From: an uncultured Gammaproteobacteria bacterium
Lineage (GTDB): Bacteria; Patescibacteriota; Patescibacteriia; UBA9934
Assembly (NCBI GenBank): GCA_964344145.1
Contig: CAYFME010000001.1
Coordinates: 16,896-80,895, forward strand
Reading direction: 5' to 3'
Length of the DNA: 64,000 nt
Part shown: piece by piece, positions 2,912-18,949 of the stretch
How positions within the stretch are numbered: position 1 is the stretch's first letter
How the letters are laid out: each line of letters opens with the position of its first letter
Made by a program: the position numbers and the translations under genes
Notes under the pieces: generated by a model
Seen by the model: only the letters and a program-made list of their open reading frames with translations
The model's database searches: none
Told to the model about the DNA's origin: nothing

Positions 2912-4861
2912 ATGAAGTTTACGATTGGTTTTGATCAGGAGGATCGCGAAAAGGTGCATAAGATGTGGGATGAAGTATTTGAAAGTGGGCAATGGAGTGA
3001 AGGGAAGTTTACAGAGCAGTTTGAGCAAACGTGGGGGGCGTACCATGGCATTGACGCGGTGGCCTTCTCCAGCTGGTCGGGTGCCGCGACAGCAACGCTT
3101 GATTTTTTCAATTTGCGAGGCAAGACCGTGTTGATGCCTGCAAATACGTTCATGGCAACACCACTTAGCGTGCTGCACATGGGCGGAAGAGTGGAATTCG
3201 TCGACTGCAATCGCGATGATTTGTGTATGAGTCTTGATGACTTACGCGTCAAGATTGATCTGTATCAACCGGCAGCCGTATTTTTGGTGCATATTGGTGG
3301 ACATATTGCGTTTCAGGTACGAGAGATTGCCGCGCTGTGTCGTGAGAAGAACATTATCCTTATTGAGGATTGCGCCCATGCGCATGGAGCCCAATGGAAT
3401 GGTCAGCGTGCAGGATCCTGGGGAGACGCAGGTATTTACTCCCTCTATGCCACGAAGTCGATTTCTACGGGCGAAGGAGGCGTGCTCGTGAGCCGCAATA
3501 AGGCGCTCATTGATTACGCAAAACAGTATCGTAACTATGGCAAGCCGGATTTTGCCGTGCGTGGGATCAATGCGCGCATGAGCGAATTCACGGCAGCGCT
3601 GGGCTGTGCGCAAATCGATCGATTGGATGATATTGTGAAATGGAAGCAGGAATATGCGCGGACCGTGCTTGATCCACAGTATCCGAATCGCGTCCACTTC
3701 CCTGCCGGGATGACGTCCGGTTACTATAAATACATTGTGTTTGATCCGATTCCCAAATCAACCGGGAAGGTGTACGACACGCCGTGTCACAGGATCTTAG
3801 GAAAACCATATGCGCTCCCGAATACGGAGTGGGTGGCAGAAAATCATTGGTGTGCGCCGCTGTATTACAAAGGAAATGACACGCAGACATCCTCACCATC
3901 TGTCGACGATATCGATCTGACTGGTTACAAAAAGGTGATGATCACGGGTGGTTCGGGATTTATTGGTTCGCATGTTGTTGAACAGCTCGTGAAAAGAGGC
4001 ATCAGGGTGCGCATTTACGATTTGATTGCCCCATCCTATCTTGACGACTTTTCGGAGTCTGAGCGCGCTCTGGTAGAGCATTACCAGGGAAGTCTTCTTG
4101 ATGAAGATCAATTGCGCATGGCCACAACAGGCATGGACGCGATTTTTCATCTGGCCGCCGTTGCCAATGTGAATGATGTTGCCGATGATCCTCTCTACGC
4201 GCAGCGGATTAACACGCAGGGAACATTTAATGTTCTGGAAGCGGCACGAAAGCAAAAGTTTTTGAAGCGCGTCGTTCTTGCGAGCACCGTGTGGGTGTAT
4301 CAAAACACCCCGCAAGGAGACCAGCCACTGGCCGAAGATGCCCCTCTTGCTCATCCTGACCACTTTTATACCGCAACAAAGATGGCCGGAGAGCAAATGT
4401 TCCTCTCCTACGCGAACATGTATGACGTTCCTGTATCGATTTTGCGCTTCGGGATCCCCTATGGAACGCGCGCTCGTCCCGCCGTCGTGAGCGCTATCTT
4501 CGTCGAGAAGGCTCTTAAGGGAGAGCCGCTTACGATCCAGGGCGACGGCAGTCAATATCGAAAGTTCGTGTACGTTGAAGATCTGGCTTTGGGATGTATT
4601 CGTGCGCTGCAGCCAGCAGGAAAGAACAAAATTTATAATCTGGAAGGAGACGTAAAGATTACCATTAAAGAAATCGCCGAAACGGTGCAGGAGCTGATAG
4701 GTAATGTACAGATTGAGTATACCGAGGGACGCAAGGCAGATTTTTCCGGAAAGGAGATTAGTAATGCGCGTGCAAAGGCGGAGATAGGCTGGTATCCGCG
4801 TATATCGTTTCGTGATGGGATGAAGCGGTATATTGACTGGCGAAAAACATTGGATCTGTGA
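2912..4861 (+). CDS. bifunctional fusion: DegT/DnrJ/EryC1-type PLP sugar aminotransferase (N) + NAD-dependent epimerase/dehydratase (C)
   Basis: The N-terminal ~300 aa carry the DegT fold signature with the lysine-containing YATKSISTGEGG segment. From ~residue 330 onward comes VMITGGSGFIGSHV (Rossmann) and YTATK (YxxxK), which is an SDR nucleotide-sugar epimerase/dehydratase domain. Confidence 0.75.
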   Translation: MKFTIGFDQEDREKVHKMWDEVFESGQWSEGKFTEQFEQTWGAYHGIDAVAFSSWSGAATATLDFFNLRGKTVLMPANTFMATPLSVLHMGGRVEFVDCNRDDLCMSLDDLRVKIDLYQPAAVFLVHIGGHIAFQVREIAALCREKNIILIEDCAHAHGAQWNGQRAGSWGDAGIYSLYATKSISTGEGGVLVSRNKALIDYAKQYRNYGKPDFAVRGINARMSEFTAALGCAQIDRLDDIVKWKQEYARTVLDPQYPNRVHFPAGMTSGYYKYIVFDPIPKSTGKVYDTPCHRILGKPYALPNTEWVAENHWCAPLYYKGNDTQTSSPSVDDIDLTGYKKVMITGGSGFIGSHVVEQLVKRGIRVRIYDLIAPSYLDDFSESERALVEHYQGSLLDEDQLRMATTGMDAIFHLAAVANVNDVADDPLYAQRINTQGTFNVLEAARKQKFLKRVVLASTVWVYQNTPQGDQPLAEDAPLAHPDHFYTATKMAGEQMFLSYANMYDVPVSILRFGIPYGTRARPAVVSAIFVEKALKGEPLTIQGDGSQYRKFVYVEDLALGCIRALQPAGKNKIYNLEGDVKITIKEIAETVQELIGNVQIEYTEGRKADFSGKEISNARAKAEIGWYPRISFRDGMKRYIDWRKTLDL

Positions 4862-5538
4862 TGTCAGATGAGCACAAGACGATACTCGTGATAGCACCCC
4901 ATCTTGACGATGAGGTGCTTGGGGTTGGAGGGACCATTGCCCGCGCGGTTGCGCAGGGATGCGACGTCCATGTGGGTTTCATCTGTAGCCGCGCCTATAA
5001 CCACCAGTACAATAGTGAGAATGATGCCAAAGAGGAGCAAGATGCACAGGCAGCGCGCCGGGTGCTTGGATACAAGAGCGCAACTTTTCTTCGATTACGT
5101 GATGAGCGGTTGTATGAGCAATTGATCGATGTGATCATCGGCATTGAGCGTATGGTGGAATCACTCCAGCCCCAAGTTGTCTACATTCCCCATCGGGGAG
5201 ACAACAATCAAGATCATCGCACCGTTTTTGAGGCCTCCATGGTGGCGCTTCGGAGTTTTTCCGCGCCTTGTGTGCGGGAGATCTATAGTTACGAAGTCGG
5301 ATCATCCACTGAGCAGGCGGCTCCCTTTACGGAGCACGCGTTCCTTCCCAACGCGTATGTGAACATTGAATCCGTCCTTGCCAAGAAGCAGCAGGCGTTG
5401 CAGTGCTATGAACGCGAACTGCGTGTGTTTCCCAACCCTCGATCCGTGAAAGGGGTGGACATCTGGGCAGCACGCCGGGGTGCGGAAGCGCATTGTCGGG
5501 CTGCGGAAGCGTTTGAGGTGATTCGCATGATCAAGTAA
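4861..5538 (+). CDS. PIG-L/LmbE-family de-N-acetylase
   Basis: ILVIAPHLDDEVLGVGGTIA, which is the PIG-L zinc-binding HxDDE-type motif. ATG overlaps the upstream TGA (GTGATG). Confidence 0.75.
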   Translation: MSDEHKTILVIAPHLDDEVLGVGGTIARAVAQGCDVHVGFICSRAYNHQYNSENDAKEEQDAQAARRVLGYKSATFLRLRDERLYEQLIDVIIGIERMVESLQPQVVYIPHRGDNNQDHRTVFEASMVALRSFSAPCVREIYSYEVGSSTEQAAPFTEHAFLPNAYVNIESVLAKKQQALQCYERELRVFPNPRSVKGVDIWAARRGAEAHCRAAEAFEVIRMIK

Positions 5539-6361: not shown

Positions 6362-7064
6362 TCATGCGCTGACCATCGTTGTCTGTTGTTTTAATGGGGA
6401 AGCGCACATCGAGGCGTGCCTCGCGTCACTGGCAAACCAAACAAGGGACGATTTTTCCGTGCTCATCATTGATGATGGATCGAACGATCGCTCAGCTATC
6501 ATTGCAGAGAAATTTGCCCAAACGCGTGCGGGATGGACACTGCGGGCTCATCCGGAAAATGCTGGACTGGTCGCGCGGTGCAATGAAGCGATCGCAACGA
6601 TTGCTACTCCGTTCTTTGCTCGTCTCGATGCAGATGATCTGTTTACTCCATACGCCGTGGAAAAAATGTATGTAGAGATGGCACGCATCGATGATGCGGC
6701 ATTTACGCTCTTTCAGCGATGGGATCTCTGGGAGGATGATACGCGTGCAATGGACGTACACGATGATCTCTATGAATGGATTGCCGCTGGAACGCTCTTT
6801 CGTACGGATGCGGTTCGGGCCGTTGGTGGATACGATAAAGAATTTTGGGAAGAGTATGATTTGTATCTCAAGTTATTGACGCAAGGGATGCGCTATCACG
6901 TTTCTCCCTTTAGTGTATACTACTACCGCCGCGGGCAGGAGAGCATGACGCAAAACCGCGCGGCAACGCTCAAGGGGTTCCGTTGTTTGGAGCAAAAATG
7001 GGGGTCCGCGGTGTTGCAGCAATACGGCAATGCTGATCGGATTCTCTCTTATTATCAACAATAA
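6336..7064 (+). CDS. family 2 glycosyltransferase
   Basis: LTIVVCCFNGEAHIEACLASLANQT...LIIDDGS. This is a GT-A N-terminus with a DxD-type motif region. The start may be the internal ATG at 6345. Confidence 0.75.
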   Translation: MKSMTTKDNHALTIVVCCFNGEAHIEACLASLANQTRDDFSVLIIDDGSNDRSAIIAEKFAQTRAGWTLRAHPENAGLVARCNEAIATIATPFFARLDADDLFTPYAVEKMYVEMARIDDAAFTLFQRWDLWEDDTRAMDVHDDLYEWIAAGTLFRTDAVRAVGGYDKEFWEEYDLYLKLLTQGMRYHVSPFSVYYYRRGQESMTQNRAATLKGFRCLEQKWGSAVLQQYGNADRILSYYQQ

Positions 7065-12861: not shown

Positions 12862-13629
12862 ATGGAAACACCAAAGCAACATGATGTCGTGTGGGACGAG
12901 CAAAAAATTGCAGATTATTGGAATATTTGGGGAAACTTGAAACCAAAGAGTCCTTGGTTTGGCGAAAAAGCCGGTACGTGGATAAGGAAAGAGGTAGAAG
13001 AACTAAGGCCACATTTTAGCGGGAAGTCCCCTAAGGTGTTGGACATTGGTTGCGGTTCCGGCGTTCTTTTGCACAAGACGTTTGCTCCAATGGGATTTGA
13101 TTGTTATGGGGTCGACCTTTCACCGGAGCGCATGGAGCGCGCGCGCCGAGACTATCCGGAGATGACCTTTGCCGTCGGATCGATGAAGTCGTCGCCGTTT
13201 CCGGATGATACCTTCGATCTGGTGGTTTCCACGCAAATGGTAGAGCATTTGCTTGATGATGATCTTGAGCCCTCGTTTGCAGAGATGTCGCGCCTTGTAA
13301 AACCGGGCGGGCTCGTGATGATTACGACGCGATATGATGAAGACATGAGCCAGGGGCATAACGTCTGTCCGGATTGTCACGCCGTCTATCGTTACTCGCA
13401 GCACTTGCAATCGTTTGACATTCCGCGCATGACTGCCCTACTTGAGGGTGTGGGTCTTTCCCCATTGATCGTGAAACGGAGTCGTTGCCGGGATCATTTG
13501 CGCGACATGATCCCACAGCGTCGCATCCCGCTCGTTCGTCATTTAGGCCCCCTGTTGTATTGGCTGTTTGCCGATAAGCTGGATCGCGAGATGGGAAAGT
13601 ATCTTTACGCGGTAGGGAAGAAGGAATAG
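12862..13629 (+). CDS. class I SAM-dependent methyltransferase
   Basis: VLDIGCGSGVLL motif I, LVKPGGLVMITT post-II motif, and a CPDCHAVYRY zinc-ribbon-like insert. Confidence 0.75.
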   Translation: METPKQHDVVWDEQKIADYWNIWGNLKPKSPWFGEKAGTWIRKEVEELRPHFSGKSPKVLDIGCGSGVLLHKTFAPMGFDCYGVDLSPERMERARRDYPEMTFAVGSMKSSPFPDDTFDLVVSTQMVEHLLDDDLEPSFAEMSRLVKPGGLVMITTRYDEDMSQGHNVCPDCHAVYRYSQHLQSFDIPRMTALLEGVGLSPLIVKRSRCRDHLRDMIPQRRIPLVRHLGPLLYWLFADKLDREMGKYLYAVGKKE

Positions 13630-13665
13630 AAACAGAAGACCCCGCACCGGACAGGTGACGGGGTC
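13621..13665 (-). terminator. candidate minus-strand rho-independent terminator
   Basis: 11-bp GC-rich stem with one bulge: GACCCCGCACC-ggaca-GGTGACGGGGTC (13638-13665). On the minus strand it is followed by TTCTGTTTCTATTCCTT. It sits just downstream of the minus-strand stop at 13770. Confidence 0.4.
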
Positions 13666-13769
13666 ACTCTGTCGATGCGGGGTAGTTCACCCAGCGCCCT
13701 GCGTGGTGCGGGGGCTGCACCCCGGAGGCGGGCACGAGATGCGATTTCTGTGGGATGCGGTTGAGGTTG

Positions 13770-14006
13770 TCACGCGCTGGTGGACGTGTTCTGGCTTCGC
13801 ATCAGGTTCTGCCTCGCTCGGCGCATGATCACGACCAGCGCGGGCATGACGATGCACAAGATGGCGAAGATGGCGACGGAGGTCTTGGGGTGCGGTGAGC
13901 CGGGGATCGCAGCCGCCGACAGGAGGAGGATGAGAATAGCACCAAACCAGCTCACGCCCTCTCCGACCTTGGCCCAGAAGATCTCACGCTTGAAATAGTC
14001 CCCCAT
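13770..14006 (-). CDS. small 2-TM membrane protein (78 aa), high-GC islet
   Basis: Internal ATG at 14006-14004 is preceded by AGGAGG and overlaps the upstream stop (TGATG). Translation MGDYFKREIFWAKVGEGVSWFGAILILLL...AIFAILCIVMPALVVIM has two hydrophobic helices. The upstream extension of the listed 156-aa ORF has no RBS and is probably not translated. Confidence 0.5.
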   Translation of the reverse strand: MGDYFKREIFWAKVGEGVSWFGAILILLLSAAAIPGSPHPKTSVAIFAILCIVMPALVVIMRRARQNLMRSQNTSTSA

Positions 14007-14344
14007 CACTTTACCTCCTGCTGGATTTTCGACTCCGTCTTGTGCAGGTGGGCGAAGATCTTGTAGAAGAGCCAGCACATGAGCGCCATGGGGATGCCCA
14101 GCAGCGTCGCGCCGAACGCCTCGAGGACGTTGCCGGCTAGAAGGGGCGACACCGCGAAGCAGCACATCGCGCTGAAGTAGATCGTCTTGTTGAAGACCAT
14201 CAGGGTCATGACGTTCCCGGACTGCTCCGGGTAGGTGCACTGCAGGTAGTAGCGCACCGTGTTCCAGTTGAGCAGGTTGTAGACCACCCCGATGAACAGG
14301 GCGACCGCTCCGATGTAGAGCGTGATGGGAAGTGGCAGATCCAT
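14006..14344 (-). CDS. small 3-TM membrane protein (112 aa), high-GC islet
   Basis: GGAGAAAG RBS precedes the ATG at 14344. Three hydrophobic helices (ITLYIGAVALFIGVVY, IYFSAMCCFAVSPLLAG, LLGIPMALMCWLFYKIF). Translationally coupled to the downstream small membrane gene. Confidence 0.55.
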   Translation of the reverse strand: MDLPLPITLYIGAVALFIGVVYNLLNWNTVRYYLQCTYPEQSGNVMTLMVFNKTIYFSAMCCFAVSPLLAGNVLEAFGATLLGIPMALMCWLFYKIFAHLHKTESKIQQEVK

Positions 14345-14463
14345 GGCTTTCTCCAGTCGACTGGGTGAAGTTGCCGACGTGTCAAACTAGCATACAATGG
14401 CTCTGCCGTCAACCAGCTGTTGACGTGAGGCCATTTTTCTGTTAACCATCCTCTCTCAATTAC

Positions 14464-15030
14464 ATGATTATGCTATCATTTAGCAAAAGGGATATGAGTA
14501 ACGTTTGTAACGATAAATTTAAGAATCTTGTCCTCTACGTCCTATCTCACGAAGATTATAGGGAGGGAGGTATTAAGAAGTTGAATAAACTCCTGTACTT
14601 TATTGATTTCTATTTTTACAGAGACCACGAGGAGCTCATCTCGAACGTAGACTACGCAAAGGCAGACATGGGGCCTGTGGTTGACGGGTATAAGACTATT
14701 TTCAGTGCATTAGCCGAAGATGGCGTGATTGAGCAGGTGTCGAACGTGGGCTTTGTGGCGTATAAGGCGAACCAAGCACCAGATTTGAGTGATTTTTCTT
14801 CAGATGAGATCGCCCACATCGGACGAGTACTCGATCAGTATGGGAAACTTTCTGGAAGTGACTTGGAGTTAATCTCTCATCAGCAGCAACCGTGGGTGCT
14901 TACTGAAAGCATGGGAGATAAGATTGATCCTGATTTAGCACTCTTAATTGCAGATAGTGATAATGAAGATGTGGAAGTTCAAAATCAGGATTTGAAGAAC
15001 GAACTGATTGATCTTGCAAATTCTGTGTAG
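14464..15030 (+). CDS. Panacea-domain (DUF4065, SocA-like) putative antitoxin
   Basis: KKLNKLLYFIDFYFYRDHEELISNVDYAKADMGPVVDGY matches the DUF4065/Panacea core (KLxKLLYF...GPV..). The gene is AT-rich relative to its flanks. Confidence 0.6.
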   Translation: MIMLSFSKRDMSNVCNDKFKNLVLYVLSHEDYREGGIKKLNKLLYFIDFYFYRDHEELISNVDYAKADMGPVVDGYKTIFSALAEDGVIEQVSNVGFVAYKANQAPDLSDFSSDEIAHIGRVLDQYGKLSGSDLELISHQQQPWVLTESMGDKIDPDLALLIADSDNEDVEVQNQDLKNELIDLANSV

Positions 15031-15033
15031 CCT

Positions 15034-15363
15034 ATGGCTAAAATTACGGTTGAAGTCCTGGAGTCGCTACAAAAGGAGGTAGATAAAGGTGGTCCGAAAA
15101 TCAAGAAATTATTCGAAAAACAAAAACGATTCATGGAAATGAATCCCAACTATCCATCACTGGGACGAACCAAGCTGCAGGGCGTCTTTGACAAATATGG
15201 TGATCCACTTTGGGAAATTCGTTTGAACAAAAAGGACAGAATCGTATTTGTGGAAAGAAACAGCGGCGAAAGAGTCATCTGGTTGAAGATTGTTGACCAC
15301 GATTCACTCGTCAGAAAGAACACGATTCATGCAAAAGGAAACTATAAAGACACCCCTTGCTGA
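15034..15363 (+). CDS. small protein with RelE/ParE-like toxin C-terminus (putative cognate toxin)
   Basis: LWEIRLNKKDRIVFVERNSGERVIWLKIVDH resembles the RelE/ParE superfamily motif LYELR..RiiY...v.vL.i.hR. It starts 4 nt after the Panacea gene stop. Confidence 0.45.
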   Translation: MAKITVEVLESLQKEVDKGGPKIKKLFEKQKRFMEMNPNYPSLGRTKLQGVFDKYGDPLWEIRLNKKDRIVFVERNSGERVIWLKIVDHDSLVRKNTIHAKGNYKDTPC

Positions 15364-15368
15364 TTTTT

Positions 15369-16427
15369 TTAACTCTTTTTCGCAACAATCCGCAAGACAT
15401 CACGATTCGGTCCGTACTGGAAATCAGGATGCTGTAATAATGTGTAGAAATCGGGCGCGCGGTGTTTTGCAAGCATCGTAAGCCAGCCGCGCGTTGCGCG
15501 CTGTCCAAGCACCATACGGCTCGCGTTTAAGATCAACTGTTTCTTTTGCTGGCGGGCATGCGTTCTTTTAAGATTCGCATGCGTTGTTTTTGACGAGTGC
15601 ACTCCCTCTTTAACGTCCGTGGTCATTTCTTGCGCCGCCGCCGTGGATTCGAGGGATCGTACCGTGCGCTTCACATCTTCTTGTTTGCCCGCGCTGCCGA
15701 TAAATTGTGTTTCCAAGCCGGCGTTTGCGCAGACGCGCTCGAGTGATTCCATGCTGAAGAAGGAGAGGTGGGGAATTGAGTAATACTGATAGCGTGTCAG
15801 ATCTTCATTTGGGACTTCGCAAATAAAGATACCGCCTGGTGCGAGGAGCCGTGCCACATGCGCGACAATCCCCGGAACATCGTGTGCATTGAAATGCTCC
15901 AGCGAGTGGGACATGACAATCACGCGAAACGTATTGTCCGGAAGCTCGGCAATGGGCTCCGGACCGAACAATTGAGGAACAATCGTTGCGCCAAGTTTTT
16001 GTAGTCGAGGATGAGCGTCTTCCTGCGGCTCAACCGCCCAATACTCCATCGGCACATTAAGGCGCGTACATGTATGGAAGAAGTGCCCGGGACCAGGACC
16101 GATATCCAAAAGTTTATCCGTTGGTTTTGGATCAACATACTGGCGCATGAGCAGTACCTGCGCGAGCGCGCGCGGCTCAAAGTGAAATGGATTGCCAACA
16201 TTCAAGAGGGGATTTTTCCCCCCTTTCATGGCTCTGCCGGTGTAGGCTTTTGTGTAGAAGGCATCGAGGTCCTCCTCTGCAATGCGCTCCCCGCCGAAGC
16301 TAAACCGACAGTTGTTGCACGAATAGATGCTCAGCTGACGAAAGGAGGACGGCATGTCCATGGTGCCGGTGTAGTAGTCTCTTTTCCTCTCCGTATTTGT
16401 TGGCGTGGTACAGATGGGGCAGTTCAT
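15369..16427 (-). CDS. class I SAM-dependent methyltransferase with N-terminal CxxC zinc ribbon
   Basis: Start chosen at the ATG (16427) preceded by GGAG. MNCPICTTP...CNNCRF zinc ribbon, LLDIGPGPGHFF motif I, LAPGGIFICEVPNED. Confidence 0.7.
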   Translation of the reverse strand: MNCPICTTPTNTERKRDYYTGTMDMPSSFRQLSIYSCNNCRFSFGGERIAEEDLDAFYTKAYTGRAMKGGKNPLLNVGNPFHFEPRALAQVLLMRQYVDPKPTDKLLDIGPGPGHFFHTCTRLNVPMEYWAVEPQEDAHPRLQKLGATIVPQLFGPEPIAELPDNTFRVIVMSHSLEHFNAHDVPGIVAHVARLLAPGGIFICEVPNEDLTRYQYYSIPHLSFFSMESLERVCANAGLETQFIGSAGKQEDVKRTVRSLESTAAAQEMTTDVKEGVHSSKTTHANLKRTHARQQKKQLILNASRMVLGQRATRGWLTMLAKHRAPDFYTLLQHPDFQYGPNRDVLRIVAKKS

Positions 16428-16549
16428 GGGAATCTCCGTATTATGAATGCTGGGAGAGTATAGCAACAGGACGGAGACCATGGCAATACTCCTGTTTCAG
16501 AACAATTGACAGGCTTTCTTTGTATGCTACCATCGAATCCACAATACCT

Positions 16550-18949
16550 ATGGACAGTTCGGCACAAAAAAGAGCGGTGATTCTCGGTGCGGGTCCGGTG
16601 GGACTCGTTTCTGCGTGGCAGCTTGCAGAGCAAGGGTGGGCGGTAGAGATTTTTGAGAAGCAGGATCGCGTTGGGGGGATGTGCCGCACATGGAAGTGGC
16701 GCAATTTTCTTGTTGATACCGGACCACACATTTATCACACACCAGACACGCAACTTGCACAATTTTGGGAAGAACATTTCGGCGACCTTTTTGTGAAGGG
16801 GGAGTTTTGGTGTAAGAACGTTCGTGGGGAGCATTTTGATGAGTATTGGGACTACCCGCTATCGTGGGAGAGTATTGGTAAGTACCCACAGGAACTCAAG
16901 GAGACCATTCTCCAAGAGTTAGATGAACGAAGTGGGTACGACAAAGCGCGTGCGCGAAATTATACCGAGTACATGGATGCGTTAGTTGGTCCAACACTCC
17001 GAAAGATGTTTTTTGAAACGTATCCAAAAAAGGTTTGGGGCATTACGACCGACGAGATGACACCGGACTGGGCGCCCAAGCGTATGGAGTTTCGGCAGAA
17101 CGTCACTCCCTTTTATCACAACCAATGGAATGCGGTGGGGAAGTATGGAACGGGATGTATTTACGAACGGATCGCCCAAAAGATTCGAGCGCTCGGAGGC
17201 ACGATCCATCTTAATACAGAGGTGCGCAAGATTTGCGCGGACGGGAAGACATTAACGGCGATTGAATTTGCCGGTGATCGCGCGCCGTTGGTGCTCACGC
17301 CGGATGATGTGGTGATTTCCAGTTTACCCATTACGCTCACCGCGCGCTTTTTCGGCCATCAGAGCAAGCTTTCTTTTCGCGGTATCTGTGCCATCTATCT
17401 TGCGTATAAGAAGAAGGAAATTTTGCCGGAGGGGGTTCATTGGCTCTATTATGGTGCGGATGACATTGATTTTAATCGCATTACGGAGTCCAAGAAACTC
17501 GCCCCAAATGTGGCACCCGAAGATGAAACCTTTTTAACGATCGAGGTGACGTATAGCCGCGGAGATGACATTGACACCATGGATCCTGAGGTGCTTGCCA
17601 AGCGCATTGCACAGCAGGTGGAGCGTGTGGGGCTGGCGCGCGAAGACGAGGTGATTGATTGGAGTATTAACAAAGAGCCGTTTGTTTATCCATTGCAATA
17701 TGCCGGGTATCAGGATGAACTCGTAAAGACGCGCGCGGTTGTATCGCAATTTTCGAATCTCTATTCCATTGGTACCGGTGGAGATTATAACTACGCGGAT
17801 AGTCAAATTCTCTTTCACAAAGCCTTTGATACGGTGGCGATTCTTTGTGATAAGGATGCGTCGTACACGCAGGTGATTCGCGAGCAACGTCACGTAGAGC
17901 TCAATGAGACGATGGAGATCGGCGATCGCCGCATCGGAGAGGGTGAGCGACCGTTTATCATTGCCGAAGCAGGGATGAATCACAACGGAAGCATCGAGCT
18001 GGCAAAAGAATTGGTTGATGCCGCCGCGCGTGCAGGTGTTGATGCGGTGAAGTTTCAGACGTTCCGTGCAGCAAACCGTATTTCGCAGAAAGTGAAGGGC
18101 GTGCGTTACGCAGAGACAGTTATTGGGCTGGAAGAGACGCTCTATGAGATGTTCGACCGCTTAGCGATGTCCCCGGAAATGCACAAAGAGCTGTTTGCGT
18201 ATGCACGCGCGCAGGGCATTGAGATTTTTTCAACACCATTTGATGAGATCAGCGTTCGCTTGCTAGAGGAGCTCGGCGTGCCCATGTACAAGATCGCTTC
18301 GATGGATCTCGTGAACCTACCGCTCATTCGTACCGTGGCGCGCACCGGTAAGCCAATGATTCTGTCAACCGGGATGTCTACGATGGGACAGATTGAAGAG
18401 GCGCTGGATGCCGTTCGTGCACAAGGGAACCCAAACGCAGCACTTTTGCATTGCAACTCGTCGTATCCGGCGGCACCAAATGAGATGAACCTGCGCGCGA
18501 TTCAAACTATGCGCACAGCGTTTCGCGTGCCCACCGGGCTTTCGGATCACACGCTTGGTCTATCAGCATCGCACACGGCGCTTGCGCTGGGAGCCAATAT
18601 TATTGAGCGTCATTTTACCCTCGACCGTACGCTTGAAGGTCCGGATCATATTCTTTCCTCGGAACCGGATGAAATGGCCGAGCTTGTCGGGCTTGCGCGC
18701 ACCATTCCGGCGATGCTTGGCGATGGAGTGAAACGTATTCAGCCAAACGAGTACCAGACGTTGAATCAACAGCGAAAGAGTATCTATGCAGCGCGAAATA
18801 TCAAGGTGGGCGAGACGATAGACGCCGATGCGATTACCGTAAAGGGTCCTGGCGGGGGGCTGTTGCCGCGCTACGTCGAGATGGTGATTGGTCGCCCTGC
18901 ACGCCAAGACATCGAAGCCGATTATCCAATAACGTGGGACAATGTATAA
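16550..18949 (+). CDS. fusion: FAD/NAD(P)-binding oxidoreductase (amine-oxidase/Glf-like fold, N) + full-length NeuB-family ulosonic acid synthase with SAF domain (C)
   Basis: Start at the ATG (16550) after a 122-bp divergent intergenic region. N-terminus RAVILGAGPVGLVSAWQLAEQGWAVEIFEKQDRVGGMCRT is a dinucleotide-binding GxGxxG-EK-GG motif. From ~residue 480: PFIIAEAGMNHNGSIELAKELVDAAARAGVDAVKFQTF (NeuB TIM barrel). C-terminal SAF-like segment IKVGETIDADAITVKGPGGG. Confidence 0.7.
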   Translation: MDSSAQKRAVILGAGPVGLVSAWQLAEQGWAVEIFEKQDRVGGMCRTWKWRNFLVDTGPHIYHTPDTQLAQFWEEHFGDLFVKGEFWCKNVRGEHFDEYWDYPLSWESIGKYPQELKETILQELDERSGYDKARARNYTEYMDALVGPTLRKMFFETYPKKVWGITTDEMTPDWAPKRMEFRQNVTPFYHNQWNAVGKYGTGCIYERIAQKIRALGGTIHLNTEVRKICADGKTLTAIEFAGDRAPLVLTPDDVVISSLPITLTARFFGHQSKLSFRGICAIYLAYKKKEILPEGVHWLYYGADDIDFNRITESKKLAPNVAPEDETFLTIEVTYSRGDDIDTMDPEVLAKRIAQQVERVGLAREDEVIDWSINKEPFVYPLQYAGYQDELVKTRAVVSQFSNLYSIGTGGDYNYADSQILFHKAFDTVAILCDKDASYTQVIREQRHVELNETMEIGDRRIGEGERPFIIAEAGMNHNGSIELAKELVDAAARAGVDAVKFQTFRAANRISQKVKGVRYAETVIGLEETLYEMFDRLAMSPEMHKELFAYARAQGIEIFSTPFDEISVRLLEELGVPMYKIASMDLVNLPLIRTVARTGKPMILSTGMSTMGQIEEALDAVRAQGNPNAALLHCNSSYPAAPNEMNLRAIQTMRTAFRVPTGLSDHTLGLSASHTALALGANIIERHFTLDRTLEGPDHILSSEPDEMAELVGLARTIPAMLGDGVKRIQPNEYQTLNQQRKSIYAARNIKVGETIDADAITVKGPGGGLLPRYVEMVIGRPARQDIEADYPITWDNV

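Follow-up and report, generated by a model that had tools for sequence, protein, structure and literature searches.

A Panacea gene paired with a RelE/ParE-fold gene in a bacterial glycan locus: a likely horizontally acquired type II toxin-antitoxin cassette

We analyzed a two-gene unit, panA and panT, in a 64,000-nucleotide (nt) stretch of DNA deposited as from an uncultured Gammaproteobacteria bacterium and placed by GTDB in the Patescibacteriota (GenBank assembly GCA_964344145.1, contig CAYFME010000001.1, positions 16,896 to 80,895 of the forward strand), which we refer to as the window. Both open reading frames (ORFs) were present on the plus strand where an initial annotation, made from the sequence by itself, had placed them (Table 1), and direct reading of the sequence gave a 3-nt spacer between them. 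The guanine-plus-cytosine (GC) content of the pair is 0.416, compared with 0.544 and 0.512 in the two 3-kb flanks, and the low-GC block extends from about 14400 to 15400 at 100-nt resolution. A high-GC stretch (0.58 to 0.61) lies 5′ of the pair and holds two small minus-strand membrane-protein genes (13770..14344). These figures and the gene map agree with the initial description of an AT-rich pair between a high-GC islet and a minus-strand methyltransferase gene inside a glycan locus. We consider it likely that the pair is a horizontally acquired type II PanAT toxin-antitoxin (TA) module of about 0.94 kb, in which a toxin of the RelE/ParE fold is bound directly by the antitoxin PanA.

The 188-amino-acid (aa) product of panA scored 64.4 bits on the Pfam family PF13274 (SocA_Panacea), whose gathering score is 25.7 (E value of 2.2e-17, profile positions 1-112 of 113), which confirmed the Panacea (DUF4065) domain that the initial annotation had read from the sequence. 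The tripeptide GPV occupies residues 70-72, where the window protein reads MGPVVDGY, and neither G70 nor P71 varies across the subfamily (alignment A2). GPV is the signature motif of Panacea and is reported to be critical for neutralization (PMC8832971). We found 89 close relatives of PanA among 5.8 billion proteins, most of them 174 to 199 aa long and many labeled Patescibacteria or Candidatus Uhrbacteria, and all 89 carry PF13274. The true start of PanA is probably M11 (ATG at 14494, giving a protein of 178 aa), because the family alignment begins near window residue 14, tblastn matches start at window residues 9-18 in seven of the eight other genomic contexts described below (and at residue 3 in the remaining one, L004), and the AlphaFold model shows disorder over its first 16 residues.

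The AlphaFold model of PanA had a predicted local distance difference test score (pLDDT) of 84.3 and a predicted template modeling score of 0.76. Residues 17-161 form a compact Panacea core, which is followed by an acidic linker that is disordered (residues ~162-174, with pLDDT below 50 at 165-172) and by a C-terminal amphipathic helix (residues 175-187) with a nearly invariant face made up of E180, L181, L184, and A185. We found no helix-turn-helix (HTH), PAD1, or zinc-binding N-terminal domain in PanA, and no close match of the model among solved structures. The best fold match in the PDB, and the only high-probability one found by Foldseek, was to chains B and D (~187 residues) of 7yk3, a Mycobacterium tuberculosis DarTG complex (E value of 0.017, TM score of 0.47); judged by this model, that chain may have a Panacea-like fold.

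The initial annotation had called the second gene RelE/ParE-like, and this was borne out at the level of the superfamily, where weak family matches, a profile bridge, and structure agree; a profile search of the window protein itself gave no Pfam match above a cutoff. The 109-aa protein reached no cutoff in Pfam or NCBIfam and had no match at all in PHROGs, and both its sequence and the profile of its family matched only noise among PDB chains (haemagglutinin coiled coils and a WD40 protein). Its family is small, with 34 sequences in 5.8 billion and 12 representatives at an E value of ≤1e-3 among 1.84 billion, and is found largely in Patescibacteria-type metagenome bins. Across the 34 members, sub-threshold Pfam matches fell on Gp49 in 27, on ParE_like in 17 (best E value, 6.4e-5), and on ParE_toxin in 3, three families that we take to belong to the same clan, and no other Pfam family recurred in more than 5. 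A hidden Markov model of the family reached the distant proteins P0044, P0045, and P0047 at E values of 2.7e-5 to 8.9e-4 (whole library), and these pass the Pfam cutoffs of Gp49 (31.4 bits), ParE_toxin (34.4 bits), and HigB-like_toxin (32.0 bits), respectively. The motif W..R(I/L)....R(I/V).F...HD is common to the family and to these three proteins. The protein also has the architecture of the RelE/ParE fold, an N-terminal strand and a helical hairpin packed on an antiparallel beta-sheet. Three independent lines, the sub-threshold matches, the bridge to Gp49, ParE_toxin, and HigB-like proteins, and the structure, place the 109-aa protein in the RelE/ParE superfamily. We assigned it to no named family, since no member scanned individually reached the cutoff of Gp49, ParE_toxin (PF05016), HigB-like (PF05015), ParE_like (PF24732), or YoeB (PF06769). 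A 315-aa protein, P0065, was considered as a candidate natural PanA-toxin fusion and rejected, as its N terminus is over-extended.

Within this superfamily, the toxin is more likely than not an mRNA endonuclease that depends on the ribosome, like RelE, HigB, and YoeB. RelE, HigB, and YoeB ranked slightly above ParE in both structure searches, and the commonest weak Pfam match of the family, Gp49, is a HigB-type family. The residues K47, E61, R63, R69, K85, H89, D90, R94, and Y104, which lie on consecutive strands and at the C terminus, are invariant or nearly so. Such a pattern of charged residues is typical of a RelE-type active site and is generally absent from ParE. If the toxin instead poisoned gyrase in the manner of ParE and so blocked DNA replication, the architecture of the module would be the same; we regard this as quite unlikely. 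The toxin differs from that of ParDE in keeping the conserved charged residues typical of the ribonuclease (RNase) branch, and the antitoxin is unrelated to that of ParDE.

Several results weigh against our reading of the toxin. The window protein scored 13.6 bits on Gp49 (PF05973), compared with a cutoff of 23.9, and the best sub-threshold E value in the family belonged to ParE_like, which keeps some probability on gyrase poisoning. For the catalytic residues we took K52, K54, R61, R81, and Y87 of RelE and E46, R65, and H83 of YoeB as reference positions, after checking the Escherichia coli YoeB and RelE sequences residue by residue against the PDB. Alignment of the family with hhalign placed R59 and R65 of E. 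coli YoeB opposite R63 and R69, with an E value of 0.15, and gave an E value of 0.24 for E. coli RelE; neither is significant, so this mapping of catalytic residues is only suggestive. In addition, several PanT candidates of Kurata et al. were nontoxic or were not neutralized in E. coli (PMC8832971).

We compared nine distinct contexts of the pair (the window, L004, L005, L007, L009, L011, L023, L025, and L027/L028), many of which come from Patescibacteria. In all nine, a gene of the same toxin family (~105 aa) lies 1 to 13 nt 3′ of a gene of one and the same PanA subfamily, whereas the genes around the pair show no relation between contexts. Identity to the window copies declines in parallel for the two proteins (84/86, 68/71, 69/69, 57/62, and 63/52%). 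The charges of the pair are complementary, with a pI of 9.7 for the basic toxin (family median, 9.3) and of 4.35 for the acidic PanA (family median, 4.8).

This charge complementarity fits stoichiometric binding and bears on a second explanation, namely, that the module is of type VI like SocAB and that PanA would act as a proteolytic adaptor that delivers the toxin to ClpXP without inhibiting it. SocA is the founding Panacea protein, PanA has a weak match to NCBIfam SocA_antitoxin (E value of 2.5e-6), and Kurata et al. noted that the two modes are possibly not mutually exclusive (PMC8832971). The Panacea domain is shared with the type VI SocAB system of Caulobacter. However, PanA scored 27.3 bits on the SocA equivalog NF047745, far below its cutoff of 190, and the partner has the RelE/ParE fold and is not SocB-like. 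The PanAT pairs that have been tested form stable complexes directly and neutralize independently of ClpXP or Lon (PMC8832971). We therefore consider a SocAB-like mode extremely unlikely, and direct binding by a type II PanA remains our preferred reading.

Because panT lacks its own Shine-Dalgarno sequence, its translation is probably coupled to that of panA. In the window, panA and panT share a reading frame and are separated by TAG-CCT (15028-15036), so that read-through would fuse the proteins. They are in frame also in L004, L007, and L028 and not in the other five contexts, and the shared frame is probably incidental since it is not conserved. The putative promoter of the cassette lies in the 5′ leader, which has a −35-like TTGACG (14420-14425), a weak −10 candidate, TAACCA (14443-14448), at a spacing of 17 nt, and a Shine-Dalgarno-like AAAGGGA just 5′ of the ATG at 14494. 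A promoter consensus scan chose another site, outside the cassette, at 14371-14398 (9/12). The conserved TTGACG falls in the right arm of a palindrome at the left border (Table 1), the left arm of which is outside the DNA shared with L004. The palindrome is therefore not conserved, as its right arm alone is within the DNA shared with L004, and it may be an operator or a chance artifact of the junction.

The weakness of the predicted promoter elements would fit a decaying, nonfunctional remnant, as would the failure to find a relative with an empty site (see below). Such a remnant is very unlikely, because both ORFs are full length compared with their 34 and 89 homologs and keep every invariant residue, and the sequence is identical in three independent metagenome assemblies.

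The borders of the cassette were defined by comparison with its closest relative. DNA homology to L004 (80% over 937 nt, window positions 14420-15356) begins at the TTGACG box, ends just before the panT stop codon, and coincides with the GC step (0.42 versus 0.52), which delimits a cassette of about 0.94 kb. The GC content of the pair was lower than that of both flanks in nine of nine contexts. In L005, near-perfect 97-nt direct repeats (94 nt identical) bracket the PanAT genes at 5140-5236 and 6421-6517, 1,281 nt apart; they contain an internal hairpin (AAAAAGACGTAC...GTACGTCTTTTT) and occur as only two copies in the 11-kb locus. These repeats could be a long target duplication or cassette recombination sites. 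In L023, a 23-nt direct repeat, ACGACGGGATTGTGGTGGAATAG, is found at 2935-2957 and 3898-3920. The upstream gene ends (3′) in this sequence, stop codon included, and the second copy lies ~27 nt after the toxin stop; the repeat looks like an insertion footprint. Large serine recombinases are encoded within ~2.5 kb of the pair in L004 and in L027/L028. The GC step, the occurrence of the pair in nine unrelated contexts, the DNA-level border, and the direct repeats at two other loci support horizontal insertion and a pair that moves as a cassette.

Around the window pair itself, we found no flanking direct repeat of at least 10 nt. The initial annotation had proposed a comparison with loci that lack the islet. 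When contigs were scanned for an empty site next to the neighboring NeuB-fusion gene, the only relatives found were from other phyla (59-69% identity), and the upstream synteny was not kept in any of them. For want of a close genome with an empty site, the borders were inferred from the L004 homology and the GC profile.

The initial annotation had left open whether the inserted module was a TA or an abortive-infection module. Insertion and the TA domains were upheld; abortive infection, in which Panacea would sense phage and release or activate the toxin, was not. It is compatible with a type II PanAT module, some contexts place the pair on mobile DNA, and Ernits et al. hypothesized a sensory role for Panacea and linked TA networks to phage defense (PMC10440598). 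However, neither protein matched PADLOC-DB v2 at an E value of ≤1, a scan of IMG/VR viral contigs with the toxin found no copy, and there were no recognized defense genes among the neighbors in the contexts that we read. We consider a role in antiphage defense unlikely.

Kurata et al. (2022, PNAS) described Panacea as a hyperpromiscuous antitoxin domain, with MqsR-like, PemK, ParE, Fic/Doc, and toxSAS proteins on record as partners of PanA (PMC8832971). Their Dataset S1 contains PanA clusters without an N-terminal domain, in antitoxin-then-toxin order, whose toxins were assigned by HHpred to HigB-2, YoeB, ParE, or RelE (e.g., T14 and T28); these are all marked “notest” (PMC8832971), so that no pairing of PanA with such a RelE-fold toxin has yet been validated. 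The window pair resembles T14 and T28, with which it was compared by their description, in its stand-alone Panacea protein without an N-terminal domain, its gene order, its RelE/ParE-fold partner, and a very short or negative gap between the genes, and it differs from them in that its toxin family is very small and has no Pfam assignment. Unlike the antitoxins of RelBE, HigBA, and YefM-YoeB, which have the RelB, HigA (HTH), or YefM/Phd fold, PanA is a Panacea protein, and it has no recognizable DNA-binding domain. The toxin is 10 to 20 residues longer than those of the same systems and has a conserved C-terminal ...R94...Y104 extension.

In the type II PanAT module that we propose, panA and panT would be cotranscribed. 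We infer that the 109-aa protein is toxic and that, when free, it would most likely cleave mRNA on the ribosome and arrest translation. The acidic PanA would bind the basic toxin directly and neutralize it, either through the GPV-bearing globular core or, as we suspect, through the C-terminal amphipathic helix on its disordered acidic linker. Addiction or selfish maintenance would keep the cassette in the glycan locus. RelB, YefM, and Phd wrap their toxins with C-terminal helices, and by analogy the architecture of PanA, especially its conserved helix at the end of an acidic tether, suggests “linear” neutralization in the manner of RelB or YefM. A stand-alone Panacea domain can neutralize directly, other PanA proteins act via Phd-C, PAD1, or a zinc-binding domain (ZBD) (Ernits et al. 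2023; PMC10440598), and PanA differs from the antitoxin of the MqsR:PanA pair, which neutralizes through its ZBD (PMC10440598), in having no ZBD. More tentatively, and with less confidence than in the module as such, we raise the possibility that the window pair belongs to an uncharacterized PanAT subfamily in which the C-terminal helix (LK.ELI.LAN) would neutralize a RelE-fold mRNase and leave the core free as a sensor, a subfamily that would be enriched in Patescibacteria and spread to unrelated phyla as a ~1-kb cassette.

Table 1. The panA-panT pair and other features of its locus (window positions)
Feature	Position	Strand	Length	Remarks
panA	14464..15030	+	188 aa	Longest ORF
panT	15034..15363	+	109 aa	
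Cassette 5′ leader and putative promoter	14420..14493	+		
Palindrome CGTCAAC-CAGCT-GTTGACG	14407..14425			Perfect 7-5-7; straddles the left cassette border
Membrane-protein gene	13770..14006	-	78 aa	ATGA overlap with the 112-aa gene
Membrane-protein gene	14006..14344	-	112 aa	High GC (0.60 for the pair of membrane-protein genes)
Methyltransferase gene	15369..16481	-	370 aa	Convergent, downstream of panT
Fusion of flavin adenine dinucleotide/nicotinamide adenine dinucleotide (FAD/NAD) amine-oxidase-like, NeuB, and SAF domains	16520-18949	+	809 aa	

The wider window is one long plus-strand cluster that encodes an ABC exporter, methyltransferases, an amine-oxidase-like/NeuB/SAF fusion, a short-chain dehydrogenase/reductase, a dehydrogenase, and a cytidylyltransferase, and this gene content indicates a nonulosonic-acid or glycan locus. 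The methyltransferase gene next to panT is the sole long minus-strand gene of the cluster. Its stop codon (15369-15371, minus strand) and that of panT (15361-15363) are 5 nt apart, and a run of seven Ts overlaps both; we detected no terminator-like hairpin between the two genes. An Rfam scan of positions 13400-16700 gave no match. The NeuB fusion is kept at 59-69% identity in L013-L022, where it is usually followed by the same dehydrogenase, in metagenome bins labeled Nitrospirota (Ca. Magnetomicrobium), Omnitrophota, Gammaproteobacteria, Nitrospina, Porphyromonadaceae, and Leptospira, and this glycan-pathway gene seems to have been exchanged widely. In none of these related loci is the methyltransferase gene found upstream of the fusion, which gives the 13.6- to 16.5-kb segment of the window the look of a mosaic assembled from separate acquisitions.

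The two small membrane-protein genes look like a second, independent foreign two-gene unit beside the TA cassette. For the 112-aa protein, a search of 5.8 billion proteins gave just one homolog cluster (P0137, 63% identity), and in L030 the P0137 gene is again followed by an overlapping gene for a transmembrane protein of ~86 aa, in an unrelated context without PanAT. L004 also has a 112-aa minus-strand gene as a neighbor of the pair; this is not the gene found in the window, as it gave no tblastn match.

The cassette fits the PanAT framework and is a fairly ordinary example of an already catalogued module that would not surprise a specialist. It offers a clean, well-delimited candidate for the Panacea:RelE/ParE-fold pairs, which were predicted in the PanAT census and never tested. 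Since the toxin family is unannotated in Pfam, NCBIfam, PHROGs, and PADLOC, a profile built from its alignment (A1) would let these toxin genes be recognized. For the host genome the point is a modest one: selfish DNA has entered the glycan locus, which is a mosaic. The core, acidic tether, and C-terminal helix of PanA bear on the question raised by Ernits et al. (2023) of whether Panacea itself neutralizes or carries a neutralizing appendage. If the helix does neutralize the toxin, it would be a new “linear” neutralizing module, functionally analogous to the C termini of RelB or YefM.
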